A stretch of 64,000 nt of DNA from Candidatus Falkowbacteria bacterium. Its GTDB lineage: Bacteria; Patescibacteriota; Patescibacteriia; CAIXNZ01. Below are positions 35,987 to 63,883 of this stretch, in pieces (within the stretch, counting starts at the first letter, position 1; each line of letters begins with the position of its first letter). The stretch is from positions 64,771-128,770 of the forward strand of contig CAVZGV010000003.1 in assembly GCA_963774955.1 (NCBI GenBank), read 5' to 3'. The position numbers and the translations under genes are program-made. The notes beneath the pieces were generated by a model that made no database searches, had not been told where the DNA came from, and saw only the letters and a list, made by a program, of their open reading frames with translations.

Positions 35987-36053
35987 AACACGGATTTAAT
36001 TCACAGATAACACTGATTACTTTATCTGTGTAATCAGTGATTATAAATCAGTG
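35987..36053. repeat. solo copy of the inverted-repeat pair that flanks the GxxExxY gene at 63424-63879
   Basis: aaacacggattt..cacagat..cactgattac..atctgtg..aatcagtg; same words as 63424-63464 and 63849-63879. Confidence 0.6.
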
Positions 36054-36068
36054 GTTAATAATTCCCAT

Positions 36069-36362
36069 ATGCTTATCGAGACTACTAAAGACATTTTATA
36101 TATAGTAATTTCCTTTGTCGTCCTTTTGTTGACTATTTTTATTTGCTGGGCGATTTATTATGTGGCGATGATTTTACGGGAATTTAAAAAAATTGTCATG
36201 GATATGCGCAAGAAAATAGAGTTGGTTGAGGCTGTTTTAACTACGTTTAAAGAAAAAATTGAACACACTTCCAGCTATATGAAGCTTTTAGTGGAAAGCG
36301 CAGGGAATATTGTGGAATTTCTAAAGGATAGGAAGGAAGAAAAGTCTAAGAAGAAGAAATAG
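36069..36362 (+). CDS. small membrane protein (start taken at ATG 36069; ORF track begins at GTG 36051)
   Basis: one TM helix, Lys-rich C-terminus. Confidence 0.45.
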   Translation: MLIETTKDILYIVISFVVLLLTIFICWAIYYVAMILREFKKIVMDMRKKIELVEAVLTTFKEKIEHTSSYMKLLVESAGNIVEFLKDRKEEKSKKKK

Positions 36363-36420
36363 AAGATTAGGACTTAGGCATTAAGAATTTGAATACCCGT
36401 TAGCGGGTATTCTTTTAGTC

Positions 36421-36449
36421 TTGACAAGGTTATAATAATATGATAGATT
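36421..36449 (+). promoter_or_regulatory. sigma70-type promoter with extended -10 (TTGACA-17-TGnTAGATT)
   Basis: read directly. Confidence 0.5.
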
Positions 36450-36455
36450 AAAGAT

Positions 36456-36716
36456 GCTCAAATGCCGCCGAGGCAGATCTCGGCCTGATTCCGCTTCGGA
36501 TCAGAATGACTTGAAAAACTGGTTTTCGGCAGCTTTTACAGGGTTTTGAGCCAGGCTTTTCCGAGCGCATCGTGGCCACTTGCCTGGGCGGAAGTCGCCC
36601 TTCATAAGCGAGAGGACGCACACGCACAAGTCGAGAAAAAAAAGAGATTATTTTTTCGGTCTGAAAAGCTGCCATCCCATTTCTTATTGCCGGAGTCCAC
36701 GTACTCCGGTTTTTTT
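36456..36716 (+). ncRNA. candidate structured RNA of about 260 nt (ncRNA or leader), unidentified class
   Basis: promoter at 36421-36449; GC-rich body with long-range pairing ggcagctttt (36526-36535) / aaaagctgcc (36664-36673); terminator ccggagtccacgtactccgg+TTTTTTT at about 36690-36716. Confidence 0.45.
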
Positions 36717-36739
36717 ATTAGCTGATTTATAGGTCTAGA

Positions 36740-37171
36740 TTGTTATTATTTGGTAGAAAATGTTATAATAGGCACATGACAATTAAACCAAAAACTCATA
36801 AGGTCAGAGGTAAGCATCATAAATTCGTAATGCCGGTATTATTTATTTTATTTACTTTAGTAATTTTAGGGGCAGTGGCCAGAACTGTTATGGCCTCAAG
36901 CGCCGGGGTAGTCTTTTGGGGAAGAATTGCCACTGTTGTGGCCATTTGTACTCCGGATCCGAATACCAATCCTTGTAATCCTTTTTTGTTGGCGCCGCCA
37001 TATGTTGTCGTGGCTACAGTAGACGGACTTCCTAATTTGGTTGGTATTATCCCTATGGCATCCTTAGGTCTGTCCAAAACTGCAGTTCCGGGGAATTGGA
37101 TTGTCGGTTTTGGAGCCCAGACTGGGCCTGCTTTTGTCGCCACAACCTATTGGATGTATAGTCTGCGATAA
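36740..37171 (+). CDS. hypothetical small secreted/membrane protein (probable start M at 36776)
   Basis: N-terminal basic segment then TM/signal; Pro/Val/Ala/Gly-rich body. Confidence 0.45.
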   Translation: MLLFGRKCYNRHMTIKPKTHKVRGKHHKFVMPVLFILFTLVILGAVARTVMASSAGVVFWGRIATVVAICTPDPNTNPCNPFLLAPPYVVVATVDGLPNLVGIIPMASLGLSKTAVPGNWIVGFGAQTGPAFVATTYWMYSLR

Positions 37172-37237
37172 AATTTAGTACTTTACTAGCCATTTAGGCC
37201 AGGGATTCTCTGGTCTTTTTTAATGCGTTGAAATTGA

Positions 37238-37266
37238 TTGACAAGTTTTACTTTTTCTGTTAAAAT
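37238..37266 (+). promoter_or_regulatory. sigma70-type promoter TTGACA-17-TAAAAT upstream of 37323
   Basis: consensus hexamers with 17-nt spacer; RBS AGGAGG before ATG. Confidence 0.6.
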
Positions 37267-37322
37267 ATATAATCGAGTAAATAGGTCAGAACTTTGACAA
37301 ATTTAACCTAAAAAGGAGGTAC

Positions 37323-38672
37323 ATGGTCATGTTTAAGCGTTCAAATTGGCTGGAAAAATATGGCCTTGTGCCAAAGATTTTTCTGGTCTGTCTGCTTTTT
37401 GTGTGTATTGGCGGTCTGAATATTTTTTTGGGGTTTGCTCAGGTAAATTCTTATTCTTATCAGCAAAAATTCAGCCACAATGCCAAACTGGATCCCTGGT
37501 TTCAACCGCCGGCGTACACCGGTCCGGAATTTGATTCCTGGCGGGAACGTAAAGAGGCTGCGCAAAAAGAAATTGACTCGCTTTATCAGCTGGCTTTGGT
37601 CAAGGGCAACGCATATTCGGTGGCGGATTATTTTCATGACTTTGACAGCCTGATGGAACTGGAAGATAAATACAACATACGCTTAACTTCCAGTACGCCA
37701 TTTTCGCCGCTGGATCAATTTGTCCTTCTGCGGGATAAATTGTCTGCCTGGTCAAGGCCCACACCCGATGACAAGCAGGTGGCTTACATCCAAAAAATCG
37801 GAGAAAAGATACGTCAACGCAACGGGGAGTTGGATTATACATCAAATACTGACATCAGCTGGTCAAGCTTAAGACCCATATTGTCCTGGCTGATAGATGC
37901 TTATCTGAAATTTATGTTCTTCTGCACCTTGATTTATATTATCAGGTTTGAGGAGCACAAAAAGTCTATCAGGCGTTTCCAGAGGCATCATCATGAACTT
38001 GGTAGATTTATTAATGATGAAGAGCCTTTTCCGGGTAGACTTTCATTCTACGATGAAATCCTGATCAACCCGTGGCGTTTTATCGGGCGTGTCCTGCTTT
38101 GGCCTAAGTACTTTCTGCATTATCCGCTTTATGAAAGTCCGGCTCAGCTGTGGCGTTTTAATCGGCTTAAAGCCGAGTTTTTGCGCTACCAGCCATTGGG
38201 CTATCAGCTGACTCCCAGGGAAGAAGCGATTTTACTGGCTCAGGCCGGAAAACCGGTAAAGGATTTTGGCAAAACTATTCGCACTTTGTTTTCCTATCCG
38301 GTTTTTATCAGACGTTCAGTCTATCTTGGCTACCTGTCTCTGGTCTTGGGATTTTTATTGCAGCCGGTAATAGTCTTGGCCGCGGATTATTCCAAGAAGA
38401 TTGAAGCTCATTGCTATGGGCAAGATCAGACCATTTTGGCTGAACAACCAAGTGATACCGGTCAACAAATAAGGGCTGGGACTGAAACCCCAAAACAGCA
38501 ACCTGACGAATCAGGCAATGAATGTCTGATTTTGACAGTTGCAGAGATGAGCATTCCTCTGAGCAGAAGCGAAAAGATCATGGATTTAATTTTGCTCAAA
38601 CCCAAAGAAATTGTTGCTGATATTGTCCATGTTCCCATTTTCCGGTTGCTTATCGCGGCGCGTTGTTTCTAA
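37323..38672 (+). CDS. hypothetical membrane protein (first gene of GC-rich island)
   Basis: 449 aa, TM helices at N-terminus, middle and near C-terminus; about 50% GC codon usage. Confidence 0.5.
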   Translation: MVMFKRSNWLEKYGLVPKIFLVCLLFVCIGGLNIFLGFAQVNSYSYQQKFSHNAKLDPWFQPPAYTGPEFDSWRERKEAAQKEIDSLYQLALVKGNAYSVADYFHDFDSLMELEDKYNIRLTSSTPFSPLDQFVLLRDKLSAWSRPTPDDKQVAYIQKIGEKIRQRNGELDYTSNTDISWSSLRPILSWLIDAYLKFMFFCTLIYIIRFEEHKKSIRRFQRHHHELGRFINDEEPFPGRLSFYDEILINPWRFIGRVLLWPKYFLHYPLYESPAQLWRFNRLKAEFLRYQPLGYQLTPREEAILLAQAGKPVKDFGKTIRTLFSYPVFIRRSVYLGYLSLVLGFLLQPVIVLAADYSKKIEAHCYGQDQTILAEQPSDTGQQIRAGTETPKQQPDESGNECLILTVAEMSIPLSRSEKIMDLILLKPKEIVADIVHVPIFRLLIAARCF

Positions 38673-38729
38673 ACAACAAACCAACTAAAGCAACCCGGAA
38701 GAAGTTCTTCCGGTTTTAGGGAGAACGAA

Positions 38730-39341
38730 ATGCGGAACAAGATGTTTTCGGTAATCGTGTCTTTGGTCATTGGCCTGCTGGCGTTTTCAGCTCTGGCTGT
38801 TGAGGACAAGCCCCAGATGGGAGTGTCGCTCAATACCGGCAGGGAACTTGGCGCCAATGTCAATCTGACCGCCAGCATGGTGTTCATCAATCTGATGTCC
38901 ACTCACGCGCCTTACACTTCCTTGGGCTTGAGCTATCAGGTGACTGACCAGTTTACTCTGGCCGGTTCTATGGGCTACGGCTTCGAGGAAGCAGATACTA
39001 TGGATGCCGGCTGGTTTGTAGGCGCTGATACGACCTTCAAGTCCGATGACTGGATCATGGTCAACAGCCTTTACTACTACGCTGGTTATGATATGTGGTT
39101 TTCTTACCACTCGTTGACTTATCCGCTCGGGTTTACCCGTGTGGGAGTTGATGTGCGTAATTACCACTATCTGCAACTGGTGGATGAAGGCTCCAGATCT
39201 TACCAGGTCGGTCCGAGCCTGAAGATCACTTTCAATGACAAGCTGAGCTTGAAGTTGAATTACTATTACGCGTTTGAACCCTATGGCGAACCGGCCATGG
39301 ATTCGAATGTGTACAAAGCAACTTTGATCTACAAATTCTAA
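38730..39341 (+). CDS. outer-membrane-type small beta-barrel protein (signal peptide, amphipathic beta-strands, C-terminal ...LIYKF)
   Basis: N-terminal signal; alternating hydrophobic pattern; terminal aromatic Phe typical of BAM substrates. Confidence 0.55.
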   Translation: MRNKMFSVIVSLVIGLLAFSALAVEDKPQMGVSLNTGRELGANVNLTASMVFINLMSTHAPYTSLGLSYQVTDQFTLAGSMGYGFEEADTMDAGWFVGADTTFKSDDWIMVNSLYYYAGYDMWFSYHSLTYPLGFTRVGVDVRNYHYLQLVDEGSRSYQVGPSLKITFNDKLSLKLNYYYAFEPYGEPAMDSNVYKATLIYKF

Positions 39342-39353
39342 GCGAGGCTGATC

Positions 39354-39593
39354 ATGACTGCCCCAAAGATTAGTGGTAAAGTAACATTAACTTGCTGTTG
39401 CGGACAAGAAATCAGTGTTCATTTATACCGCAACGATGAACCGCGAACAGCTTATGTTGTTTCTGCGGATGATAAGTCTCAATGTTGTTCAAGTTGCGGT
39501 AGGAAATATCAGTTCGCCCCAGTCGACTGTGTTGCATTTCAGATTTGGCCACCGCCATCGAAGCTCAAAGACGATGGCCATGTCATGACTTGA
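39354..39593 (+). CDS. small Cys-rich zinc-ribbon-like protein
   Basis: TCCCGQ...CCSSCGRKY; terminator 39618-39650. Confidence 0.4.
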   Translation: MTAPKISGKVTLTCCCGQEISVHLYRNDEPRTAYVVSADDKSQCCSSCGRKYQFAPVDCVAFQIWPPPSKLKDDGHVMT

Positions 39594-39617
39594 TTTTTTA
39601 ACGGTAATTAATATAAG

Positions 39618-39650
39618 GGCGAGGAGAAATCTTCGCCCTTTTTTAAATGG
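39618..39650 (+). terminator. intrinsic terminator gggcgaggagaaatcttcgccc+TTTTTT (near-identical copy at 40356-40390)
   Basis: read directly. Confidence 0.7.
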
Positions 39651-39741
39651 GTTGTTACTTGACATTTAAATAATATTGTGTTAAATTAAGGAGTTAAGGT
39701 TCGTTCTTTTTAATCAGGAAACAAAAGGAGGATGGGAAGAA

Positions 39742-40344
39742 ATGTACAGATATTCGGAAAAGAAAAATTCAAATTGGTTGCTGGTGTTGGCCATTTTTAT
39801 GGCGTTGCCGCTTGTTGTCCTTACTGCCGCCCGTTTTTACCAGCAGTACATGTTCAAAATTGAATGCACTGGCCATCTGAAGCGGGCGGCTGACGCCAAT
39901 GTCATCCGTCTGGCGAGTCAGGAAATGGACACAGCAATCCGCTATCTGGAAAAGAATGAGATGACCAGCGGTTATACTTCAGTGATAATTCAGACACCGG
40001 ATGAGGATGTGGGCTTCTGGTATCAGAATCTCAAGGCATCTGCGGAAGAGCTGGTTAATATTTCTTCGGAGGCAACGCAGCTGGAAAGCAGCAATGTGTT
40101 GATGAAATTGAGGGAAACTTTGTTGGATGAAGGACAAATCACTAAGGTTACTGTTCCCAGTGGCGTGGCTATATTTCCACATAATAAGGCCTATGCCCTT
40201 TTTACAGCCTTGGCAGCTCTGATGTTTGTTGGTGCCGCCATCCTGTATTTGCATAATTCCAAACAAAGTTTTACTTTGATTGAATTGATGATAGTGATCT
40301 CAATCGTCGGGATACTTATCACCTTGGCTTACCAGTATGCCTAG
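39742..40344 (+). CDS. hypothetical membrane protein whose last 25 aa reproduce a prepilin-type N-terminal motif (FTLIELMIVISIVGIL) without the cleavage-site Gly
   Basis: N-terminal TM, soluble domain, second TM, then pilin-like hydrophobic segment ending at the stop. Confidence 0.45.
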   Translation: MYRYSEKKNSNWLLVLAIFMALPLVVLTAARFYQQYMFKIECTGHLKRAADANVIRLASQEMDTAIRYLEKNEMTSGYTSVIIQTPDEDVGFWYQNLKASAEELVNISSEATQLESSNVLMKLRETLLDEGQITKVTVPSGVAIFPHNKAYALFTALAALMFVGAAILYLHNSKQSFTLIELMIVISIVGILITLAYQYA

Positions 40345-40355
40345 ATAAATAATAG

Positions 40356-40390
40356 GGGCGAGGAGAAATCCTCGCCCTTTTTTAATTTAT
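40356..40390 (+). terminator. intrinsic terminator ggggcgaggagaaatcctcgccc+TTTTTT
   Basis: duplicate of 39618-39650. Confidence 0.7.
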
Positions 40391-40496
40391 TACAAATTTC
40401 AGGATAGCGAATATACAAATCGAGTACAAATATACAAATAACCTAATTCATTAATAAACTAATAGATATTGACAATAAGTATTTATTTCGCTACAT

Positions 40497-40796
40497 TTGA
40501 TTTATGTTTCTAAGCCAAAGGAGGGACTGGAAATGATAGGTTTTGCCATAATGCTTTCGATTTTGGGTGCGTGTGTCGTGACCGGCATTTTGTTGAGAAA
40601 GTTCAAGTTCAAACGCGACTGTGAGAATGAGATGATTGCCGGAGTTTGCGCCGGTTTAGCCAAAACCTGTGGCATTCAGCCTTTGTGGATGCGTCTGGGC
40701 TTTGTTCTTTCAACCGTATGTGTCGGTTATGGCCTGGGTCTCTATATTATATTGTGGATCGTCTTACCCGAGGATTTACCAGAGGAAGGGGTGTAA
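40497..40796 (+). CDS. PspC-domain membrane protein
   Basis: MIAGVCAGLAKTCGIQPLWMRLGFVL...LYIILWIVLPE. Confidence 0.75.
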   Translation: MIYVSKPKEGLEMIGFAIMLSILGACVVTGILLRKFKFKRDCENEMIAGVCAGLAKTCGIQPLWMRLGFVLSTVCVGYGLGLYIILWIVLPEDLPEEGV

Positions 40797-40845
40797 AGAC
40801 GTGGAAATTTATTGCTCGATCGGGGTCTTTTCTATCAGCCTGAGC

Positions 40846-41073
40846 ATGTTCATTTTGATTATCCGGATTTCCAAAATCGGTCTGAGCCAACAAGGTAAAA
40901 AAATAGCCGGTGTTTGCGCCGGTTTATCTGAAGCTTCAGATATGCCGGTTTGGTGGATCCGCATTTTCTTTATGATTTTCTTCTTTTTTGTCGGGTATGG
41001 TTTTTTTCTCTATCTGGCGCTCTGGCTTTGCATGGTCAAAGTGAAGAAAAATACTCAGACGGAGACAAAATAG
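40846..41073 (+). CDS. PspC-domain membrane protein (second copy; start at M60 of the ORF-track entry)
   Basis: KKIAGVCAGLSEASDMPVWWIRIFFMIFF..LYLALW; bidirectional terminator 41087-41112. Confidence 0.65.
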   Translation: MFILIIRISKIGLSQQGKKIAGVCAGLSEASDMPVWWIRIFFMIFFFFVGYGFFLYLALWLCMVKVKKNTQTETK

Positions 41074-41160
41074 CAAAATAGTCTTTAAAAACGGCCGCTT
41101 GGCCGTTTTTTCCTTTTAGAATTTTTTTATTTTTTGAAATATTTATCCAGCCTATTAAAG

Positions 41161-41859
41161 CTATCTGAGATAACAAATTAAATTGGCATCAGCATAGATA
41201 CAGCTTTTAAATTGCCATAAGACATCAAGGCAAAAGACCACATCCTGGGCTCTGGGTAAATTTGAGTATTTTATTTTTTTAAAGACACTTTTGGCCACAG
41301 TGGCATGACCATGAGCCGGCAAGAGAACATAGGGCTTCTTTTGAGTAGGTTTGCGGTCGGTATAAATATAAATGGCCTGTTGACGTTTCGGTGGCCGGCC
41401 AAAGGTTAAGTTATAAATTTGTTTAGAAAACACCAGCCTTAATTTTTTAGGATTATATTTCTGCCAAGGGCAGACACCTGAAGAATATTGATGTAAAAAA
41501 AGTTTGGGCTGATATTTATCAAATATATATTTGGTAATTTCCAGCTTTTGCGGGTGACAGAGGTCATCTGCATCAAAAAAAACTAAAATGTCATAACGCG
41601 CAATTCTGGCGCCGCGATTCCGGTTTTGGCCTGCATATTGTTTTTTTAATGTGGTGGCAAAGGTAATAGGAAATTTACAGCTGGCCTGAAATTTACGGGT
41701 AAGTTTTAGGCCTTCTTTTTTGTCTGTTTCACTTAGAGCCACAATTACTTCATTTGGTAAAAGCGTAGATTGATTAAGGCTGGACAAGGCTTGAGGTAAA
41801 TCTTTAAGGTCAGGCGGATGGCAGGGGATAATAACCGAGATTTTGTTGTTTTTATTCAT
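41161..41859 (-). CDS. family 2 glycosyltransferase
   Basis: ISVIIPCHP...FDADD DxD motif. Confidence 0.75.
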   Translation of the reverse strand: MNKNNKISVIIPCHPPDLKDLPQALSSLNQSTLLPNEVIVALSETDKKEGLKLTRKFQASCKFPITFATTLKKQYAGQNRNRGARIARYDILVFFDADDLCHPQKLEITKYIFDKYQPKLFLHQYSSGVCPWQKYNPKKLRLVFSKQIYNLTFGRPPKRQQAIYIYTDRKPTQKKPYVLLPAHGHATVAKSVFKKIKYSNLPRAQDVVFCLDVLWQFKSCIYADANLICYLR

Positions 41860-42136
41860 GTTGTTAGATTTTGGGGTAGTTACTGCTTAATTTTATCAAA
41901 ATACCTTAATTTTCGCAAAAATTAGAAGTTTTTCTTGATTTTTTTTGTTAAAAATGATATCTTTTTATTGTAAATTAGCCTTAATTTATGAATGGAAAAT
42001 CAGGAGTTTCATTACATATTAACGGCCGGGTGCAGGGCGTTTTTTTCCGTTTAAAAAGGCCACAAATATACAAATTTTTACAAATGATTACAAATTTGTA
42101 GTAATTTGTATTTGATTCGTATATTTGTAACAATCT

Positions 42137-43642
42137 ATGCATTTAGACAAGCTTTCACCGGAAGAACGTAAAAAATATCGCAAACGAGAATATATTCCGG
42201 GCCTGATGATCTGGTCGACTTTTGTATTTTCTGTTGTCTTATCATTTATAAAACCAATGTGGGTGATTTATTTTATAATTCTCTTCTCCTTATATTGGGT
42301 CTTGCGAATTTTTTATTTTATTTTTTACTCTATCTATTCGGCCTATATTTTTAATAAGGCGATCAAGATTGATTGGAAGGCAAAAAGAGAAAGCCTGTCA
42401 AATTGGCATGATTATTATCATTTATTTATTTTACCGACTGCAACCGAGCCTTATGAAGTTTTGGAAACAACTTTAAACGGTATTTTGGCCTGCAAATATC
42501 CGACTGAAAAAATAATCGTGGCGATTAGCTGGGAGGAAAGAAAAAAAGATGTTTATGACGCGGTTGAGCCCAGGATTAAACAGAATTTTGAAGGAAAATT
42601 TTATAAAATGTTAACGACGTTACATCCTGACGGCTTGGAGGGTGAAATGAAAGCCAAAGGAGCCAATGCCAATTGGGTGGGCTGGAAGTGCAAGGAATTA
42701 ATTGACCAATTGGCTGTTCCTTATGAAAAGGTTATTGTTTCATATTTTGATTGTGATACCTTTGCTCATGAAAAATATTTGGATTACCTGACTTATTTAT
42801 ATGCAACTCATCCCAATCCGACCCGTTCATCTTTTCAGCCTGCTGTTTTATATAATAATAATATTTGGGACGCGCCGGCGCCAATGCGCATCACCGCATT
42901 TTCAACGGTGTTTTGGCTTTTGGCGGAATTAATGCGTCCTGACCGTTTATATACTTTTTCTTCCCATGCCATGAGTTTTAAAGCTTTGGTTGATGTGGGT
43001 TTTTGGGAAAAAGATATTGTCACGGATGATTCGCGCATTTTTTTGCAGTGTTTTATCCATTATAACGGGGATTATGAAGTGACGCCGATGTATATTCCCG
43101 TTTCTATGGATACTGTTATTTCCGAAACATCGATCTGGAACGGGTTTGTCAGTTTGTATAAGCAGCAGCGTCGTTGGGGCTGGGGCGTGGAACATCTGCC
43201 GTACATGCTTTATCATTTCAAAAAGAAGAAAGATTTAATTCCTTTCAAAACCAGAGTTAAGTATATTTGGAATTTAACCGAAGGTATGTATTCTTGGGCA
43301 ACCGCGCCGTTGATTCTTTTTATTCTGGGTCGTTTGCCCCTATATGTAGCAGGCCCCGCAGTTAAAGAAACAGTCTTAGCGCAGAATGCTCCTTTTGTGC
43401 TGGAATGGATTATGAGCATCGGTATGGTTGGTATTTTTGTTTCAGCTATTTTAAGTGTGCGTCTTTTGCCGCCGCGACCGTCTCAATATCCAAAGTATAA
43501 ATGGTTAATTATGTTTGCCCAGTGGGCACTTTTGCCCATCAATATTATTATTTTCGGGGCTATCCCCGCAGCTGAAGCTCAGACTCGTCTGATGTTGGGA
43601 AAATATTTAGGATTTTTTGTCACGCCGAAAGCCCGCAAATAA
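42137..43642 (+). CDS. processive family-2 beta-glycosyltransferase (cellulose/chitin/hyaluronan-synthase-like) integral membrane protein
   Basis: DCD (DxD), TDDSRIF (TED) and QQRRWGWG (QxxRW) motifs, N- and C-terminal TM bundles. Confidence 0.7.
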   Translation: MHLDKLSPEERKKYRKREYIPGLMIWSTFVFSVVLSFIKPMWVIYFIILFSLYWVLRIFYFIFYSIYSAYIFNKAIKIDWKAKRESLSNWHDYYHLFILPTATEPYEVLETTLNGILACKYPTEKIIVAISWEERKKDVYDAVEPRIKQNFEGKFYKMLTTLHPDGLEGEMKAKGANANWVGWKCKELIDQLAVPYEKVIVSYFDCDTFAHEKYLDYLTYLYATHPNPTRSSFQPAVLYNNNIWDAPAPMRITAFSTVFWLLAELMRPDRLYTFSSHAMSFKALVDVGFWEKDIVTDDSRIFLQCFIHYNGDYEVTPMYIPVSMDTVISETSIWNGFVSLYKQQRRWGWGVEHLPYMLYHFKKKKDLIPFKTRVKYIWNLTEGMYSWATAPLILFILGRLPLYVAGPAVKETVLAQNAPFVLEWIMSIGMVGIFVSAILSVRLLPPRPSQYPKYKWLIMFAQWALLPINIIIFGAIPAAEAQTRLMLGKYLGFFVTPKARK

Positions 43643-43757
43643 ACTAAGATTTAAAAACTAAAATGTAAGAGCTTTAACTAAAAAATTTATAACTGATTAG
43701 TTTTTAGTTCTAAGATCGAGTTCTTAGTTCTAACATCTAAGTTTTGAGTTATGTATT

Positions 43758-47626: not shown

Positions 47627-47928
47627 ATATAAATTGCCTGCAGCGTATCAAGGATTCAATTAGAATTTATAACTGCATATAATTTAAGTTGTACAGAAGC
47701 AAGCCGGCGTGTTGCCTGATTTGACTTTGGATCTAAAGTTTGGTAAAAATATTAAATCAGCGACTCCGGCTGAACCGGAAAATGAGTGGTTTAATAACTC
47801 GTATAATAATGCAATGTCTCTGGATAAGGACAAAAATATAGTGGTCGGTTTTAAGTAAGCTTTTAATAAATTTTCAATAATAAAATTTTCAAACATTGAA
47901 AATTGAATATTGAGAATTAAATTTCGAT

Positions 47929-51592: not shown

Positions 51593-52156
51593 ATGGCAGA
51601 CACAAATCAATTTATCAGTAAACATAAACCTGAGTTTGACGCTGTTATTGAACATTTTAAAAAAGAAATTGGCAGTTTGCGTACCGGACGGGCTCAGTCA
51701 GCCTTAGTTGATAATTTATTGGTTGAGGCTTATGGCACCAAGCAGGGTTTAAAACAATTAGCAGGAATCAGTATCCAGGATTCAAAGACTATCAGTATCG
51801 AACCTTGGGATAAGAGCATTATGAAGGATATTGAAAAAGCCATAAGCGCTTCAAATTTGGGTTTGTCTGTTATAAATCTCGGAGGAAAGATTCTGGCCAA
51901 AGTATCGATGATGACGGAAGATACTCGTAAGGAATTGCTGAAAATTTTAGGTAAAATGATGGAAACCTGTAAGATAAATATTCGACAAAGCAGAGACAAA
52001 GTCAAAGAAGAAATTTTAAAAGCCGAAAAGGATAAGGATATTACTCAGGATGACCGTTATCAGTATCTGGCGGACCTGGACAATTATGTGACGGAATTGA
52101 ATAAAAAGGTTGAAGCTATTGCCCAGGAAAAGGAAGAGGAAATTATGACCGTGTAA
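51593..52156 (+). CDS. frr: ribosome recycling factor
   Basis: RTGRAQSALVDNLLVEAYG...ISIQDSKTISIEPWDKS. Confidence 0.9.
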   Translation: MADTNQFISKHKPEFDAVIEHFKKEIGSLRTGRAQSALVDNLLVEAYGTKQGLKQLAGISIQDSKTISIEPWDKSIMKDIEKAISASNLGLSVINLGGKILAKVSMMTEDTRKELLKILGKMMETCKINIRQSRDKVKEEILKAEKDKDITQDDRYQYLADLDNYVTELNKKVEAIAQEKEEEIMTV

Positions 52157-52239
52157 GAACCACTGATTTTTAACACAGAGCACACAGATTTTGAGGCAGC
52201 TATTTGCAGTAAATAATTTTTTGGGGTAATATTCATAAC

Positions 52240-53972: not shown

Positions 53973-53979
53973 AAGTTGT

Positions 53980-55197: not shown

Positions 55198-55338
55198 TAT
55201 GGTTCCTCCTTGTTTATGAATGAACTATTTACCTAATTTAACAGAAAATATAGAAGTTGTCAACTATTTGTAATAGTTGGGTAAACTATGATAAAATATG
55301 AGTAGTTGGATCACTAATTTTTATTAACTTATAGTACT

Positions 55339-55536
55339 ATGTGCGTAAAAATTGTAGAATTAATTGGCTGTTCAAGTAAAAGCTTTGAAGATGCTATTAG
55401 CGACGGTGTAAAACGCGCCGGCAAGACTATCCGGGGCATAACCGGAGTCGATGTTATTGGACAGACAGCTAGAGTCGAGGATAATAAAATTGTTGAGTAC
55501 CATGTTAATATGAAAGTCGCCTTCAAGGTGGAATAA
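55339..55536 (+). CDS. dodecin-family protein
   Basis: 65 aa, VELIGCSSKSFEDAISDGVKRAGKTIRGITGVDVIGQTARV. Confidence 0.65.
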   Translation: MCVKIVELIGCSSKSFEDAISDGVKRAGKTIRGITGVDVIGQTARVEDNKIVEYHVNMKVAFKVE

Positions 55537-55581
55537 TTAATAAGAGCTAATGGCCAATAGCCAATGGCGTAAAGTTTCTTT

Positions 55582-57581: not shown

Positions 57582-57583
57582 TT

Positions 57584-58375
57584 ATGTATAATATATTACC
57601 TTTGATCATAATTTTGATTTGCCTGGCTGTCATTTTGGCCATTGTTTTTAAGAAACTGCCTCTTTTGGCTGTTTTTGATGTTAATGCTTTGCCTGAAGAA
57701 AAAGAAGCGGAAACAAAAAATAAAATTATGGAAGAAAGGCTGAATAGAAGATTGAAGTTGTTAGGCGAAAAAATTAAGCCTTTTTGGCGGCTTTTTACTA
57801 ATTTTTTCCAGCGTAAATTAAAAGCCTCAAAAGAAAGAATATCCAAATTGGAAGAAAAATATCAGGCTAAAGCTAAGCCGGAATCATTGATAACCAAGAA
57901 AGAGTTTGAAACTAATGAGAAGAAGATAGCTAGATTGCTTCAGGATGCTGAGAATTTGGCTAAAGCAGAGGATTATACTTCTGCTGAAAATAAGTACATT
58001 GAAATTTTAGGTTTGGAGGCAAAAAATATCGACGCTTATCGCGGTTTAGGCGACCTCTATCTTTTACAAAAACAATTTCAGAACGCAATTCAAACATTTA
58101 AGCATATTATTAAACTGGACAAAAACGACAGCCTGGCATATTTTGAATTGGCTGAAGTTTTCATGAGGCTGGAAGATTATGATAATGCTTTAAATAATTT
58201 GAATAAAGCCTTGGAAATTGAGCCTGTAAACCCGAAATACCTTGACCTTTTGCTCACAATTAGTATAATTATAAAAAACAAGGAAATGGCCAAAGAGGGC
58301 TTAACCAGGTTAAAGGCAATAAACCCCGAAAATGCCAAAATTGAGGAATTTGAGGCAAAGATTCGTGAAATCTAG
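57584..58375 (+). CDS. membrane-anchored TPR-repeat protein
   Basis: N-terminal TM, coiled coil, TPR-like helices. Confidence 0.5.
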   Translation: MYNILPLIIILICLAVILAIVFKKLPLLAVFDVNALPEEKEAETKNKIMEERLNRRLKLLGEKIKPFWRLFTNFFQRKLKASKERISKLEEKYQAKAKPESLITKKEFETNEKKIARLLQDAENLAKAEDYTSAENKYIEILGLEAKNIDAYRGLGDLYLLQKQFQNAIQTFKHIIKLDKNDSLAYFELAEVFMRLEDYDNALNNLNKALEIEPVNPKYLDLLLTISIIIKNKEMAKEGLTRLKAINPENAKIEEFEAKIREI

Positions 58376-58472
58376 GGATATTAAATATTTGAAGTTAAAT
58401 CGATTAAGACGATTTTTTTATTTAAGGAGAAAAATGGCCTAGGGCTTTGGCTTTAAGCCATTAAATGAAGTT

Positions 58473-58633
58473 CACGGACGGTCTACCAACTTCGCTTCCA
58501 GAAGTTACACGGATGGTCCTTGAATACTGGCCGTTGTATCCTTCGACTCGCTTCGCTCGCTCAGGACTTCGGCTCTTACGATATTAAAGAGATTATGGAC
58601 GGTCTACCAACTTCGCTCTCAGAAGTTACGGTC
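58473..58633. repeat. about 33-nt direct repeat x2 (ggacggtctaccaacttcgctYYcagaagttac at 58476-58510 and 58597-58631) plus R6 word ccttcgactcgcttcgctcgctcagg (58550-58575; second copy 58888-58913) and a duplicate of the tRNA-Thr 5' end gccgttgta (58534-58542)
   Basis: read directly; direct repeats resemble degenerate tRNA D-arm sequence on the opposite strand. Confidence 0.55.
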
Positions 58634-58647
58634 AGTCCGTAATATAC

Positions 58648-58720
58648 GCCGTTGTAGCTCAGTTGGTAGAGCAACTCCATGGTAAGGAGTAGGTCCGCGG
58701 TTCAAATCCGCGCAACGGCT
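58648..58720 (+). tRNA. tRNA-Thr (anticodon GGT)
   Basis: acceptor gccgttg/caacggc, anticodon loop atGGTaa, T-loop ttcaaat. Confidence 0.85.
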
Positions 58721-58801
58721 CACGGATATGTAATTAGAAATTCTGAATTAAATATGGACAATAATTTTGCTTTTTAATTTTTGATTTTTTATTTTAAAAA
58801 T

Positions 58802-58884
58802 GGGTCGGTACCAAAGCGGTCAAATGGGGCAGACTGTAAATCTGCTGGCTTACGCCTTCGGAGGTTCGATCCCTCCCCGGCCCA
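58802..58884 (+). tRNA. tRNA-Tyr (anticodon GTA), long variable arm
   Basis: acceptor gggtcgg/ccggccc, anticodon loop ctGTAaa, T-loop ttcgatc. Confidence 0.85.
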
Positions 58885-58965
58885 CCCTTCGACTCGCCTT
58901 GCTCGCTCAGGGCAGGCCTTGAAGTAGTCTTTAAAAGGCTTTTTGTTCTTTCGATATTTGTAAAT

Positions 58966-59038
58966 GCCGGAATAGCTCAGTTGGTAGAGCAGCTGTTTTG
59001 TAAACAGCAGGTCGTGGGTTCGAGCCCCTCTTCCGGCT
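58966..59038 (+). tRNA. tRNA-Thr (anticodon TGT)
   Basis: acceptor gccggaa/ttccggc, anticodon stem gctgt/acagc, loop ttTGTaa. Confidence 0.8.
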
Positions 59039-59071
59039 CAGATAATTAATAACTAATAACGATAAAATAGT

Positions 59072-59227
59072 ATGTCTCAAGACAATCTAATCAAACTGGA
59101 ATGTACTGTCTGTAAAAAGACCAATTATTATTCTCAAAAGAATAAAAAAATCATTAAGGAAAGATTACAGCTAAAAAAGTATTGCCGTCATTGCAAAAAA
59201 CATAGTTTGCATAAAGAAACTAAGTAG
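59072..59227 (+). CDS. rpmG: 50S ribosomal protein L33 (51 aa; below ORF-track cutoff)
   Basis: [26 protein letters not shown]...[14 protein letters not shown] with two CxxC pairs; terminator about 59236-59262. Confidence 0.8.
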
Positions 59228-59294
59228 ATAGTCAGGAAAAGGGCCGCTATAGTAGGGCCTTTTTCTGTTAACAGTCAAAAAAAGGAGGTGGCAG

Positions 59295-59582
59295 ATGGAG
59301 CGTGAAGACGGCTGGGAAGGGGACTTGATTATGGTGCTTTTAGTCGTTGGGAATGGAAATGAACGCAGAGTTCTGATTAGAACAGATCGGGGTAAGTATG
59401 AAGTGCCTTTATCTGATTTGACAGTGTCTCAGGCCAGCAGTGAATATTGTATGCCGTTATATGATCCGTTGAAAAAGATGATTCTAATCGGCTGGGAGAC
59501 GGAAACGCATGTTTCTAACGGCAAGGAGCGACGCTTGGTGGAAAAAGTAGGCCTTATTGCCTTGGCTCAGCAAGCGGCTTAA
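59295..59582 (+). CDS. hypothetical protein
   Basis: strong RBS aaaggagg before ATG; terminator hairpin after stop. Confidence 0.5.
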   Translation: MEREDGWEGDLIMVLLVVGNGNERRVLIRTDRGKYEVPLSDLTVSQASSEYCMPLYDPLKKMILIGWETETHVSNGKERRLVEKVGLIALAQQAA

Positions 59583-59605
59583 GGTTTCAGCTTAAAGGGA
59601 CAGCA

Positions 59606-60070
59606 ATGTCCCTTTTCTTTTTGAGTGGGTTTGTTATAATCAAAACAGATATGCAAAGGGTAAATCATTGTTCTCTAAAAAAGGAGGCTTACATGCAGAG
59701 AACTTTTGCAGAAATGATGATCCTGTTCTCAAATACAGATTTGTGCGAATTTTTTCAGATCCCCAATGCTAGTCAGTGGATTGGCATAATTAATCCGAGG
59801 GAAGTCCTGAGTATTCTGTCTGAGGCCGAAGACCAAAATTGGCAAACACGTTTTTGCGGTTTTGTTTCTGCGGAGGCGTACAGTGTCGATTACTCAAGTG
59901 TGGTGGAAATAGAGGCCGCACTTGACGAGTTAGATGAAATTTTTGTTTTGGTGGAAGAACAACCTGAACGGGTTAGTTCTTATCTGGCAGGCATAGATGA
60001 ACAGAAAAAAGCCAAGCTTCTCAAAGCGCTGATGTCCCAGTTGTTGCTGGAAGATTTGATTCAAGTTTGA
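59606..60070 (+). CDS. hypothetical protein (likely start M at about 59693, preceded by aaaggagg)
   Basis: ORF track. Confidence 0.45.
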   Translation: MSLFFLSGFVIIKTDMQRVNHCSLKKEAYMQRTFAEMMILFSNTDLCEFFQIPNASQWIGIINPREVLSILSEAEDQNWQTRFCGFVSAEAYSVDYSSVVEIEAALDELDEIFVLVEEQPERVSSYLAGIDEQKKAKLLKALMSQLLLEDLIQV

Positions 60071-60290
60071 ACAATAGAGGCCTTGTCGGGTAATTCTGGC
60101 AGGGCTTTTTCTTTTCGTTGATTCCTGTTAAAATAGCAGCATTGGGTAATTTCAGGTATAAATCACCAATCATCAATAATCAATAACCAAACAAATTTTA
60201 AATTCAAATATCAAATAATTTTGAGTTTTGTTATTTAGTTATTGGGTATTATTTGATGATTGAGATTTGATTATTGGTTATTAATCACCT

Positions 60291-61538
60291 ATGGATTTAT
60301 TTGATCAAAATTTAAAAGAAAGCGCGCCTTTGGCTGACCGGATGCGACCGCTTGATTTTAAGGACTTTGTTGGCCAGGAACAAATTGTAGGCGAAAAAAC
60401 CCTATTGCGCCAAGCCATTGAGGCTGATAATCTACCTTCAATTATTTTTTGGGGACCGCCCGGAACCGGCAAAACGACCTTGGCCAAAATAATAGCCCAA
60501 AAGACCTCGGCGTTTTTTGAGCCTTTTTCAGCTGTGGCTTCAGGCGTGAAAGAATTGCGGGAGGTTATAAAAGCGGCCATTGAGCGCAAGAAATTTAAAA
60601 ACCAAAAGACGATTTTATTCATTGATGAAATCCACCGCTGGAATAAATCACAGCAGGATGCGCTTTTACCGTTCGTGGAAAAGGGGATTGTAACTCTGAT
60701 TGGAGCGACCACGGAAAATCCGTCTTTTGAAGTTAATTCCGCTTTATTATCCCGTTGCCGGGTGTTTGTTTTAAACTTGCTGGACCAGGAACAATTAAAA
60801 CAAATAATAAAGAATGCACTTAGCGATAAAGACAGGGGTTTGGGTAATTTAAAAATTGACATGCCGGCAGAAGTTTCTGATTTTTTAACCCAAATGGCCA
60901 ACGGCGATGCCCGGACGGTTTTGAATGCTTTGGAGTTTGCAGCTAATTCCAGCCAGCCTGATGAAGACGGAAAAATTATTTTAGATAAAAAAATCATTGA
61001 GCAGGCTTTGCAAAAAAGTTATCTTTACGATAAGGCCGGGGAACAACATTACAATATAATTTCTGCTTTGCATAAATCCATGCGTGGTTCTGATGCCAAT
61101 GCTTCATTGTACTGGTTGGGGCGCATGGTTGAGTCAGGCGAGGATCCTTTATACATTGCGCGGCGTTTAGTCCGGTTTGCCTCCGAAGATATTGGTTTAG
61201 CTGACCCCCAGGCTTTGGTTCAGGCTGTTTCAGCCTATACTGCCTGCCATTACTTGGGTTATCCTGAATGTGATGTGATTTTAGCCCAGGCCGTTGCTTA
61301 TTTAGCCAAAGCACCGAAAAGTAATAAACTTTATACTGCCATTGGCCAGGTTAAACAGGATATTAAGAATTTACCCAATGAGCCAGTGCCTTTGCATTTG
61401 CGCAACGCGCCAACCAAATTGATGCAGGATTTAGATTATGGCAAGGGGTATAAATATACACCTAATTTTAAAGATGCCGAGGAAGCCAAGCAGGATTATC
61501 TGCCGGAAAAGTTAAAAGGGAAAAAGTATCTTGACTAA
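60291..61538 (+). CDS. rarA: replication-associated recombination protein A (RarA/MgsA AAA+ ATPase)
   Basis: FVGQEQIVG, Walker A GPPGTGKTT, Walker B ILFIDEIHR, conserved C-terminal domain. Confidence 0.85.
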   Translation: MDLFDQNLKESAPLADRMRPLDFKDFVGQEQIVGEKTLLRQAIEADNLPSIIFWGPPGTGKTTLAKIIAQKTSAFFEPFSAVASGVKELREVIKAAIERKKFKNQKTILFIDEIHRWNKSQQDALLPFVEKGIVTLIGATTENPSFEVNSALLSRCRVFVLNLLDQEQLKQIIKNALSDKDRGLGNLKIDMPAEVSDFLTQMANGDARTVLNALEFAANSSQPDEDGKIILDKKIIEQALQKSYLYDKAGEQHYNIISALHKSMRGSDANASLYWLGRMVESGEDPLYIARRLVRFASEDIGLADPQALVQAVSAYTACHYLGYPECDVILAQAVAYLAKAPKSNKLYTAIGQVKQDIKNLPNEPVPLHLRNAPTKLMQDLDYGKGYKYTPNFKDAEEAKQDYLPEKLKGKKYLD

Positions 61539-61590
61539 AATTTATTCAAATAATAAGATACCAACAAACAGCTAACAAGGAGGGTTTAAA

Positions 61591-61872
61591 ATGGCGGGAA
61601 TAGCGGTTAGGCCGAATGCTTCGGAGTACCATGAAATCACCAGCCTGTCGATTGATGACCATGGTTGGGAAGTCGTAACCAAAGAAGGTAAAAAGTTCCA
61701 TTTTGACGGCAGGCCAATTTGGGCGGAACATCTTGACAAGGCTGACACGCTCTTGGTTGATGTCAAAAGGGGCTTTGTGCTTATTCCGCCTTTACAGCCG
61801 ATTCCCCATAAGATTTATGATCCTGGGGAACGGTCAGCTGACAAGGGCCGAGAAGTGATTGAGAGTCCTTGA
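61591..61872 (+). CDS. hypothetical small protein
   Basis: RBS aaggaggg; terminator about 61888-61920. Confidence 0.45.
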   Translation: MAGIAVRPNASEYHEITSLSIDDHGWEVVTKEGKKFHFDGRPIWAEHLDKADTLLVDVKRGFVLIPPLQPIPHKIYDPGERSADKGREVIESP

Positions 61873-62013
61873 ATTTAACTTTTTTCATTTAAAGCGCACC
61901 AGCGGGTGTGCTTTTTTTTATAGTAGAAAAATTGAAAATAGAAAATATTTAGGGGATTGACAGGAGTGATTTTTATTGCTACGATTTGAAATCAATAAAG
62001 GGAGGGCAAGACA

Positions 62014-62235
62014 ATGAAAATTCGGAACTTGATCAATGGGCTTCTCGTAGGATTGAAGCGATACTATCAGGCAAGGAAGTTGCACTATCGTCTTTCACGC
62101 CTGAAAACCGAAGTGCATAATCATCCAGAGACAAGACCCAGGATACTATTTACTGGCACAGGCGGACGCATACGCGATGTGCCAGTGGGTCCTATTGAGT
62201 TTAAAGTTGAGCCGGAAAAAGATATCAAGCTTTAA
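62014..62235 (+). CDS. hypothetical small protein
   Basis: RBS aagggaggg; terminator about 62262-62295. Confidence 0.4.
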   Translation: MKIRNLINGLLVGLKRYYQARKLHYRLSRLKTEVHNHPETRPRILFTGTGGRIRDVPVGPIEFKVEPEKDIKL

Positions 62236-62403
62236 TTTGAGCGAAAACATTAATTTAAATCGCTCTGAGGTATATTACCTCGGGGCTTTTTTTTATGGCT
62301 GTTATTTGGTAAAATAAAGGTAGAATTTAAGTGTTAAAGCGTTTAAGCATTTAAGCACTAAAATTCTTAAATTCTGTAACTCTAAAACACTAACTTTAAA
62401 ATT

Positions 62404-62742
62404 ATGAAAATTCTCCTTCGTTGGCTAATTAACACGATCGCCATTATGCTCATGGCTCTTTATTTGCCGGGCATTGGCGTGTCCAGCTTTTATGCGGCTT
62501 TAATCGCAGCTTTGGTTTTGGGTATAATTAACGCTTTAATCAGACCATTGCTGGTCTTGCTGACCTTACCCATCAATTTACTAACCTTAGGTTTATTTAC
62601 ACTTTTGATCAACGCCTTTTTATTCTGGTTTACCAGTACGATTGTCAAAGGCTTTACCGTGGCTGGATTTTGGCCGGCTTTCTGGGGCGCTTTGATTATG
62701 TGTCTGGTTTCTTGGGTGACAAGTTGGTTGATTAAAAAATAA
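62404..62742 (+). CDS. four-TM membrane protein, phage-holin-4_2/YvlD-like
   Basis: 112 aa, four evenly spaced hydrophobic helices. Confidence 0.5.
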   Translation: MKILLRWLINTIAIMLMALYLPGIGVSSFYAALIAALVLGIINALIRPLLVLLTLPINLLTLGLFTLLINAFLFWFTSTIVKGFTVAGFWPAFWGALIMCLVSWVTSWLIKK

Positions 62743-62848
62743 GCACCAAATAGCAAATCGCAAGCTCCAAATAATCGACAAATAACAAATTTTTAAATTA
62801 CAAACTTGTTTGAGGTTTAATTTTTATAATTTAAAATTTATTTGATGT

Positions 62849-63433
62849 TTGTTATTTGAGTTTTGTAATTTTAAGAATACTATGTCTGACTTCGAGTTAA
62901 AAGAAAAGCTGCTACTCCACACCTGCTGCGCGCCGTGCAGCATATACGTGATTAACCAGTTATTGGATAGATTTGACCTGACTGTATATTTTTTTAATCC
63001 TAATATTTTCCCTGAAGATGAATATTTGCAGCGTTTGGCCGAAGTTAAAGAATTTTGCCGCCGCAAACGGATTGATTATATAGAGGAACACTATCAGCCT
63101 AAAGACTGGTTGGGCTTTGTTCGCGGTTATGAACAGGAGCCGGAAAAGGGGTTTCGCTGCGATTTGTGCTTTTTATTGCGTTTGAGCAAAACTGCCGAAT
63201 TTGCCCAGACAAACGGCTTTGATTGGTTCAGCACGACCCTGACCATGGGTCGGCAGAAAAACTCCTTGCAAGTTTTGAACGCAGGGCGTAAAGTAGAAGG
63301 TAAGTACCGGGTTAAATTCTGGGACCAGGATTTTAAAAAGAAATACGGGACTCAGATCGCTGATTGGTTGGCGAGTCGGTTGGGGTTGTATCGGCAGGAT
63401 TATTGCGGTTGTGTCTTCTCAAAGAAATCTTAA
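62849..63433 (+). CDS. queH: epoxyqueuosine reductase QueH (DUF208)
   Basis: LLLHTCCAPCSIYV signature, conserved Cys later; probable start M at 62882. Confidence 0.75.
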   Translation: MLFEFCNFKNTMSDFELKEKLLLHTCCAPCSIYVINQLLDRFDLTVYFFNPNIFPEDEYLQRLAEVKEFCRRKRIDYIEEHYQPKDWLGFVRGYEQEPEKGFRCDLCFLLRLSKTAEFAQTNGFDWFSTTLTMGRQKNSLQVLNAGRKVEGKYRVKFWDQDFKKKYGTQIADWLASRLGLYRQDYCGCVFSKKS

Positions 63434-63851
63434 ACACGGATTTTTAATCACTGATTACACTGATTTTCACAGATATATATGGGACTATTTATATCAAGAT
63501 ATTACTTATAAAATTAATGGAGCAGCTTTCCGATGTTATAATAAATTGAGCTATGGATACAGGGAAAAGTTTTACCACAGGGGCTTTGCCGAAGAATTAA
63601 AATTGGAATTATTAAAGTTTAAACATGAATGCCCCGTCAAATTAATTTATAATGGTAAAATTATAGGTAAATATTATATTGATTTTGTTGTTGAGGATAA
63701 AATAGCCGTAGAGATACAAATTGCCAATGATTTTTACGTGAGGGATATTAAACAATTATTTAGTTATTTAAAGGCAAAGAATTTAAAGCTGGGCTTGTTG
63801 ATTATTTTTAATAAAGATGGAGTTAAGATTAAACGTATAATTAATTCATAA
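63411..63851 (+). CDS. GxxExxY-family (PD-(D/E)xK-like) protein, bounded by inverted repeats 63448-63464 and 63849-63879
   Basis: YQDITYKINGAAFRCYNKLSYGYREKFYHRGFAEELK...VEIQIAN..LKLGLLIIFN; start codon uncertain. Confidence 0.65.
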   Translation: MSSQRNLKHGFLITDYTDFHRYIWDYLYQDITYKINGAAFRCYNKLSYGYREKFYHRGFAEELKLELLKFKHECPVKLIYNGKIIGKYYIDFVVEDKIAVEIQIANDFYVRDIKQLFSYLKAKNLKLGLLIIFNKDGVKIKRIINS

Positions 63852-63883
63852 TCTGTGTTTATCTGCGAGGATAAATCAGTGTT

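Follow-up and report, generated by a model that had tools for sequence, protein, structure and literature searches.

A GxxExxY nuclease gene at the tip of an intergenic word-array palindrome, and the same hairpin architecture around its homologues across phyla

The 64,000-nucleotide stretch analyzed here (the window; positions 64,771 to 128,770 of contig CAVZGV010000003.1, assembly GCA_963774955.1, Candidatus Falkowbacteria bacterium) carries a small gene of the GxxExxY family (PF13366/TIGR04256) between the QueH gene and another protein-coding gene. We found that this gene is bounded by two arrays of a 7-nucleotide (nt) word, CRC-N-GAT, with four direct copies on its left and three inverted copies on its right, and that an outer inverted repeat, CTTAAACAC on one side and GTGTTTAAG on the other, closes the element. 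The locus is a hairpin-apex cassette, in which the GxxExxY gene occupies the tip of an intergenic palindrome made of word arrays. A sequence-only reading of the window had already described the gene as bounded by inverted repeats, and every word that it quoted was located where it had been placed; one of these, aaacacggattt, is present but is simply another copy of the 7-nt word. Both arms overlap coding sequence: the QueH stop codon (63431-63433) falls within the left arm, and the first base of the inverted word ATCTGTG at 63851 is the last A of the GxxExxY stop codon. The whole element measures only ~460 bp, with the nuclease of 124 amino acids (aa) as the sole gene inside it. It lies outside rRNA; Rfam shows no rRNA in the window and, at the gathering threshold, reports tRNAs only.

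When joined by a GAAA tetraloop, the arms of this filled site fold at -24.5 kcal/mol (z = -4.0), and their pairing is retained in both the minimum-free-energy and the centroid folds of the whole 491-nt cassette, in which the stem encloses the open reading frame (ORF). The word itself is overrepresented: CACWGAT occurs 22 times in the window versus 8.2 expected, a count that none of 100 shuffles reached, and 11 of the 22 copies fall either in the filled site or in a gene-less palindrome (hereafter, a solo) at 35986-36056. No promoter-like site was found in the left arm, and no second GxxExxY copy was found in the window by a search with the family hidden Markov model. Neither phage genomes nor PADLOC defence models nor PHROGs gave any match, so that a defence-system or phage origin is unsupported.

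The same arrangement surrounds homologous genes in other bacteria. A genome scan yielded 80 loci, with homologues 32-59% identical, from Candidate Phyla Radiation (CPR) groups, Bacteroidota, Planctomycetota, Proteobacteria, Chloroflexi and others (compared loci are cited below by their L numbers). For each gene, the 130 nt upstream were compared with the reverse-complemented 100 nt downstream, and the 7-mers common to both were counted. Over 67 loci, the mean number of shared inverted 7-mers was 8.8; permuting the locus pairs 200 times gave 2.05, with a maximum of 2.9, and comparison of the same flanks in the same orientation gave 3.6. GxxExxY genes also differed from the other genes of the same loci (56 loci), with 9.1 versus 1.8 shared inverted 7-mers; four or more were shared by the flanks of 87% of the GxxExxY genes versus 14% of the other genes (Mann-Whitney p = 1e-19). 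GxxExxY genes in general, across phyla, have this architecture.

The words themselves follow a common template, YRC-N-RAN, which was present in at least four copies over both arms in 43 of 70 loci. CACnGAT is the commonest class among these 43 loci (16), followed by TACnAAT (9) and CGCnGAT (5), with the other 13 loci using TACnAAA, CGCnAAT, TACnAAC, CGCnGAC, CGCnGAG, CACnAAT or CACnGAA. They have a fixed polarity, the YRC side pointing outward and the RAN side toward the gene. A typical arm holds three to four words over ~27 nt, the right arm starting at most 5 nt from the stop codon in 51% of the loci and the left arm ending at most 5 nt from the ATG in 37%. Because paired words are complementary at 94-100% of their fixed positions and the spacers at 64-86%, the arms are true inverted repeats with an extra constraint on the words. 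The centre base is complementary in 67% of pairs across the family, like the spacers, and the idea that it is always mismatched was rejected; the lineage of the window is atypical in this respect. The upstream neighbor is co-oriented with the cassette in 65 of 71 loci and the downstream neighbor in 50 of 63, and the median gaps to these neighbors are 77 nt upstream and 64 nt downstream, spacers that the arms fill. Co-orientation, spacer-filling arms and a left arm free of promoter-like sites fit transcription by read-through.

Some loci of the survey show another layout. The GxxExxY flanks in L026 and L072 are direct repeats of the whole 45-60-nt arm, not inverted ones. In L069, from a Sericytochromatia metagenome-assembled genome, the GxxExxY gene has a complete solo palindrome on its upstream side, and the right arm recurs downstream; an ORF that by eye resembles cas2 (L069:2908-3189) directly follows the gene.

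The arms travel with the gene. The words of the window recur in different gene neighborhoods at L007 and L089, with proteins 63-69% identical, so that related copies carry the same ends, as the sequence-only reading had proposed to check. One homologue (P0004, 69% identical) lies between flavodoxin and glutaredoxin genes and another (P0007, 63% identical) in a transketolase/DUF2090/PfkB string, each with CAC-N-GAT arrays on both sides. The genome of L003 holds two cassettes with different words, one of class CACnGAT at the QueH junction and one of class TACnAAT between the genes for a penicillin-binding protein (PBP) and a Mur ligase, and the protein of the latter cassette is nearest to TACnAAT-class proteins of other CPR groups. 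When nearest protein neighbors with less than 60% identity were compared, 16 of 43 loci shared the word class of their neighbor, versus 8.3 expected (p = 0.012). The gene and its inverted arms behave as a discrete cassette, and to that extent the earlier description of a small cassette stands.

Orthologous sites provide a view of how these palindromes change. The junction between QueH and the KWEE gene is filled with the same cassette in L001 (QueH 87% identical), L003-L006 (82%) and L088 (81%); four lineages are filled, and filled and solo states are interleaved by QueH identity. The window cassette is inherited vertically at this junction and is an ordinary member of its class. No GxxExxY gene was detected at 18 further orthologous junctions (66-91% QueH identity), of which about 16 hold a solo array palindrome with lineage-specific words: CACnAAT (3+3) in L102 and L110, CACGAAA in five loci, TACTAAG (4+4) in L106, GAAGGCC in L096 (the closest relative, at 91%) and GAGAYTC in L103 and L111. 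At L112, a membrane-protein ORF without arrays is inserted. CAC-type solos and filled sites have homologous right ends (…GTGTTTAAGTAATCA).

Changes of state are also seen between strains. Over 4 kb, the identity of L003 and L004 is 99.9%, and at the PBP/Mur ligase junction, where L003 carries its TACnAAT cassette, the palindrome of L004 is a solo built from GATGGGTAAA words; the tract that was replaced extends into the last PBP codons and ~20 Mur ligase codons. This difference shows a recent exchange. Filled, solo and other-word states replace one another at orthologous intergenic junctions, even between strains. The same two strains differ at a second place (L003:1366-1445 versus L004:713-980), where an inverted repeat, GGGCGAAAATGCCC...GGGCATTTTCGCCC, encloses different inner sequences; the inner part in L004 is a duplicated unit of ~75 nt.

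Solo palindromes, defined as at least two words followed by at least two inverted words within 90 nt, were counted in 627 kb made up of the window and the non-redundant loci, all of the latter chosen around GxxExxY or QueH genes. This census yielded 50 solos, versus 0-3 in shuffled sequences. Half of them (25 of 50) fit YRCnRAN, a template that covers only 32 of the 4096 possible gapped words, and the order in which words come first and inverted words second prevails by 25 to 2. L046 has three near-identical solo copies, and L087 has two, which flank its GxxExxY gene. Outer ends are common to solos at unrelated sites.

The solo at 35986 in the window had been taken for a contiguous copy (35987-36053) of the words that flank the GxxExxY gene, in the same order, and so for the footprint of the cassette or a derivative resembling a MITE (a miniature inverted-repeat transposable element). 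It does share the words and outer ends of the filled site and belongs to the same class; order and spacing differ, however, no contiguous copy exists, and the similarity of the two sites goes no further than words and outer ends. The solo folds into one imperfect hairpin (-20.8 kcal/mol, z = -3.8). In L092, whose neighboring protein is 77% identical, the orthologous site has the same CAC-N-GAT palindrome with a few word-centre changes, whereas the site in L093 (62%) has a palindrome of other words and that in L094 has none. The TGnTATAAT box upstream of the solo is kept in the window, L092, L093 and L094. With the palindrome retained in L092 and the box upstream conserved, the solo is old and not a fresh footprint or MITE copy, and a recent origin from the cassette 27 kb away was rejected. 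Judged from this conservation, it is an old element retained in a probable 5′ leader, where it would be a leader hairpin.

Table 1. Positions of the cassette, its neighbor and related word-array sites in the window
Feature	Position	Strand	Remarks
GxxExxY (PF13366/TIGR04256) coding region	63477..63851	+	minimal RecB/Cas4-type PD-(D/E)XK nuclease, ~124 aa
Left arm	63429..63474	+	outer inverted repeat CTTAAACAC plus 4 direct words; conserved in L001, L003, L088, L007
Left-arm words	CACGGAT 63435, CACTGAT 63449, CACTGAT 63458, CACAGAT 63468	+	
Right arm	63851..63887	-	3 inverted words, then outer inverted repeat GTGTTTAAG
Right-arm inverted words	ATCTGTG 63851, ATCTGCG 63861, ATCAGTG 63875		
Outer inverted repeat CTTAAACAC/GTGTTTAAG	63429-63437 and 63879-63887		closes the element
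QueH gene (PF02677)	62849..63433	+	upstream neighbor; marks the orthologous junction for comparison
Solo palindrome	35986..36056	.	3 direct and 3 inverted CAC-N-GAT words; imperfect hairpin; conserved in L092
Direct words of solo 35986	CACGGAT 35989, CACAGAT 36002, CACTGAT 36011		
Inverted words of solo 35986	ATCTGTG 36024, ATCAGTG 36033, ATCAGTG 36047		all six words within 35989-36053 (65 nt)
Promoter-like site TTGGCC-18-TGgTATAAT	35945..35974	+	immediately upstream of solo 35986
Second solo	42061..42129	.	CACAAAT/TACAAAT x4, then ATTTGTA/ATTCGTA x4
Half-site	52161..52189	+	CACTGAT, CACAGAG, CACAGAT directly after the stop of ORF 51593-52156; no inverted arm

The product of the cassette gene matches PF13366 (PDDEXK_3; 3.7e-27, 95.4 bits, cut-off 22) and TIGR04256 (GxxExxY; 2.3e-28, 98.9 bits, cut-off 35) and no other Pfam or NCBIfam family. 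The motif that names the family lies near the N-terminus as G27-Y-R-E30-K-F-Y33 (GYREKFY; numbering for 63477-63848). An AlphaFold (AF2) model built from 36 sequences reached a predicted local distance difference test score (pLDDT) of 95, and its best PDB neighbors are Cas4 SSO0001 (E 5e-5, template-modelling score 0.6) and the lambda/LHK exonucleases. The residues conserved in the GxxExxY alignment are E30, D69, E79, K81 and Q93xxxY97, that is, E, D, ExK and QxxxY, which is the RecB/Cas4 motif set, here without the iron-sulfur (Fe-S) cysteines.

The copy in the window departs from this pattern. Homologues are 123-124 aa long and start with MGE/D-LY at an ATG, whereas the ORF named earlier (63411-63851), although it exists, is only the maximal frame, opened by GTG 63411. 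The window does have the canonical ATG, at 63479, but out of frame (TATGGGA versus TATGGGGGA in four relatives), with three G in the run at 63479-63486 versus five in the relatives, and the frame is kept only from GTG 63411, reading through the arm and overlapping QueH by 23 nt. In addition, the catalytic Lys of ExK, a Lys in at least 90% of the 36 aligned homologues, is Gln (VEIQ; CAA 63717-63719), and a nearly invariant Gly is Ser; D69 and E79 are retained. The shortfall in the G run could be an assembly error, but the two substitutions are not that kind of artefact. Because the ATG is frameshifted, the catalytic Lys is Gln and the conserved Gly is Ser, the window copy, a family member by its sequence, is probably inactive or decaying and catalytically dead.

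The family to which it belongs is very large (~30,290 clusters at 50% identity, E <= 1e-3). A full-text literature search on GxxExxY found passing mentions only, in five papers, among them a remark on 'multiple transfers' and unknown function (PMC3424549). Many called GxxExxY ORFs carry spurious N-terminal extensions that are translated words (MDTD, MNAD, RINAD). For annotation, this means that the arrays yield spurious extensions and may help to produce long, apparently fused gene calls. Many top family matches are proteins of ~260-277 aa with two GxxExxY domains (representatives P0085-P0101 and others), and some domains are embedded in proteins of 400-900 aa; such two-domain and long proteins may be genuine tandem fusions or the result of gene calling across arrays.

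Similar palindromes also enclose other genes. At the QueH junction of L105, we found an ORF of PF05635 (8e-26), the four-helix-bundle protein of 23S rRNA intervening sequences (IVSs), with one stop in frame; CACAAT/TACAAT words and five inverted ATTGTG/ATTGTA/ATTGTT words flank it. Inverted word arrays are present in six of eight PF05635 loci (L031, L040, L105, L152, L155, L162), the other two having the left arm only. Moreover, a 96-aa GIY-YIG gene (PF01541, 4e-11; L054:3991-4281) is bounded by an inverted repeat, GTCATTCTGGCTTGGCCAGAATC / GATTCTGGCCAAGCCAGAATGAC, and is possibly a third small-nuclease cargo of hairpin cassettes.

Among known systems, the closest are the IVSs and the REPIN palindromes with their REP-associated tyrosine transposases (RAYTs; REP, repetitive extragenic palindrome); the cassette fails the defining features of each, namely an rRNA location with a PF05635 ORF and an HUH transposase. 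In Coxiella, the 23S rRNA IVS is described as an S23p ORF with a 28-bp inverted-repeat stem around it, which RNase III cuts, and the origin and mobility of IVSs are unclear, horizontal transfer being suspected (PMC4990558). Like the IVSs with an S23p/PF05635 ORF in Leptospira and Coxiella (PMC4990558), the cassette has a small ORF in the loop of a long terminal-inverted-repeat stem, at the hairpin tip. The two share sporadic distribution, vertical retention and suspected horizontal transfer, and a PF05635 gene occurs in a word-array palindrome once at the orthologous QueH junction itself. Unlike an IVS, the window element has protein-coding genes on both sides and carries a gene for a PD-(D/E)XK protein (PF13366), not PF05635, and its arms are tandem arrays of 7-nt words, not a simple inverted repeat; processing by RNase III is here only predicted. 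Like REP and REPIN sequences with their RAYT (PMC3116915, PMC3337134, PMC5581495), the palindromes are short and intergenic and in some other genomes multi-copy, one gene is flanked by inverted copies, the repeat class is specific to the gene clade, and the gene is vertically retained at a fixed locus. As for dispersed copies, the 64 kb of the window has two to three same-class sites, and L046 and L087 have their near-identical solos; a REPIN-like dispersal over the genome is putative. In contrast to RAYTs, the protein is a RecB/Cas4-like nuclease core of ~124 aa, not an HUH Y1 (IS200/IS605-like) transposase, and two or more GxxExxY genes can be present in one locus (L003, L089), RAYTs being usually single; unlike REPINs, the word arrays have no GTAG/CGTC tag, and cleavage by GxxExxY proteins is putative.

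Other comparisons are more distant. Free-standing homing endonuclease genes also are small nuclease genes with filled and empty alleles at one site, as at L003/L004 and the QueH junction, and the replaced L003/L004 tract likewise enters flanking coding sequence; homing genes insert where host function is spared. Unlike homing sites, however, the 'empty' alleles here hold unrelated palindromes and not an uninterrupted recognition site, the nearest structures are Cas4 and lambda-exonuclease types that act on DNA ends and not known sequence-specific homing enzymes, and cleavage is again putative. MITEs and transposons with terminal inverted repeats (TIRs) have subterminal repeated binding sites, as at the ends of Tn7, Mu and En/Spm. 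The cassette resembles them in having short direct repeats at one end, inverted copies at the other and gene-less derivatives; it differs in having no recognizable transposase, no target-site duplication seen and a total length of ~460 bp. GxxExxY proteins share fold and motif set (E, D, ExK, QxxxY) with Cas4/RecB-family nucleases, and an annotation pipeline has picked up a Cas4 gene as a 'GxxExxY domain' (PMC8934634); they are roughly half as large, lack Fe-S cluster cysteines and, in the window, have no CRISPR context. A limited full-text literature search found no published description of this architecture.

Taken together, these findings suggest an undescribed class of selfish or domesticated hairpin cassettes around the GxxExxY family. 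Our preferred reading, to which we give an even chance, is that of an IVS-like and REPIN/RAYT-like hairpin cassette with a minimal Cas4/RecB-type nuclease, whose architecture is observed and whose mode of spread we infer. The cassette would be transcribed by read-through from the host operon, and its arms would pair in the transcript, as in 23S rRNA IVSs, isolating or processing the insert and bringing the start and stop codons to the stem base. The palindromes would form a REPIN-like population of non-autonomous elements, and recombination or gene conversion that uses the arms and flanking genes may turn filled forms into solos and back. By analogy with RAYTs and REPINs and with free-standing homing endonucleases, the nuclease plausibly recognizes or cuts cognate word arrays or hairpins and so promotes their copying. 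A bolder version, which we put forward tentatively and consider rather less probable, makes GxxExxY nucleases the partners of phylum-spanning YRC-N-RAN palindromic repeats and thereby a PD-(D/E)XK counterpart of RAYT/REPIN; the 23S rRNA IVSs with an S23p ORF would be a special case resident in rRNA, and the 7-nt words would be recognition units, bound or cleaved, that drive the copying of palindromes between intergenic sites, with or without cargo.

Several points weigh against the cassette reading. Outside CTTAAACAC...GTGTTTAAG, no target-site duplication convincing by eye was found, although such duplications had been proposed as a check; the TTAA at both ends belongs to the inverted repeat, and no precise empty allele was found. 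The 64-kb window has just one cassette and two to three palindromes of the same class, and the solo census comes from a biased genomic sample. Plain homologous recombination with a divergent allele can explain L003/L004 with no function encoded by the element. Conservation of the solo at 35986 between species in a 5′ leader is compatible with a host regulatory role, and the finding of PF05635 genes inside similar palindromes is an argument that the words need not be read by the cargo protein. Among arm mismatches, 80 are G:U-compatible on the sense strand versus 56 on the antisense strand (p = 0.048), with 276 of the transversion type, the random proportion of two thirds; this is no clear G:U signature and too weak to prove selection for RNA pairing. 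Finally, nuclease action, word binding and transcript pairing are, for any member, steps that we infer by analogy.

In a rival account, the palindromes would be host stem-loops, intercistronic or in 5′ leaders, acting in mRNA stability, processing or translation, whose loops are invaded by small selfish ORFs (GxxExxY, four-helix-bundle, GIY-YIG) that are harmless there; the arms would then belong to the site. Nearly every lineage has a palindrome at the QueH junction whether or not a gene lies inside, different species keep the solo at 35986 downstream of a -10 box that is itself conserved, hairpins contain three unrelated cargo families, and ORFs in 23S rRNA IVSs and intron loops are a precedent. 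We nevertheless find this account doubtful, as YRCnRAN follows GxxExxY genes across phyla and into unrelated neighborhoods, word class correlates with protein relatedness, and two cassettes in one genome (L003) keep different words. Travelling arms fit host stem-loops poorly, unless homing is restricted to hairpins with like arms. It also seems unlikely to us that mobility plays no part and that the nuclease gene uses the arms for its own regulation in cis, for example to sequester its start codon or to offer an RNase III site so as to limit a potential toxicity, with the solos being unrelated terminator-like or leader hairpins whose AT-rich words arose by slippage. Such a device would agree with the frequent overlap of start and stop codons with the innermost words, the co-orientation of cassettes with the upstream gene, vertical retention at the QueH site in lineages with 81-87% QueH identity and the use of other words by many solos. 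It would leave unexplained that half of all solos carry the GxxExxY template (32 of 4096 gapped words), that near-identical solos occur in multiple copies, that strains differ in filled versus solo state and that the family is patchy and multi-phylum, with ~30,000 clusters at 50% identity and 'multiple transfers' (PMC3424549).

The sequence-only reading had named as its own possible undoing a promoter motif shared by unrelated genes and lacking inverted pairing. Transcription-factor sites or a promoter element of this kind, with an incidental inverted layout, would suit the site at 52161-52189, which has direct words only, and the direct arrays upstream of a promoter in L092, L093 and L094. 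We consider this very improbable: inverted pairing is systematic across the 56 loci and reaches the spacers (64-86%) and the free centre base (67%), the words differ between sites of one genome, the left arm has no promoter-like site, and the right arm is located after the stop codon.

The conserved architecture, with its word arrays of fixed template and orientation, its gene-less forms and its filled/solo polymorphism, is the first testable functional context for the very large PF13366/TIGR04256 family, and it links this family to the PF05635 genes of 23S rRNA IVSs. Should the nuclease act on its own palindromes, there would be a second REPIN/RAYT-like system with a different mechanism, and one that is widespread in CPR bacteria, Bacteroidota, Planctomycetota and others.

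The window contains further array hairpins. The second solo (Table 1) ends 8 nt before a glycosyltransferase-like ORF (42137-43642), and it belongs to the sister class TAC-N-AAT, which ranks second in frequency among the words that flank GxxExxY genes elsewhere; the window itself has no GxxExxY gene of that class. The half-site at 52161-52189 is followed by ~250 nt without a long ORF. Other array hairpins lie at 43657-43750, 47869-47925 and 62768-62850, with the unrelated words AACTAAA, AAATTTTCAA and ACAAATAA. The window has nine array-hairpin sites versus 0-5 in shuffles, and in this genome the intergenic spacers seem generally to carry word-array hairpins. TAACGAT/TACCGAT arrays recur at two unrelated intergenic sites of one 178-kb contig (L093:1420-1505 and L001:9942-10046), which suggests genome-specific word families. 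Direct TAC-N-AAT-like arrays in L092 (3800-3830), L093 (3400-3450) and L094 (3260-3320) adjoin, on its upstream side, a conserved TTGACA...TAAAAT promoter-like site that precedes a non-coding stretch.

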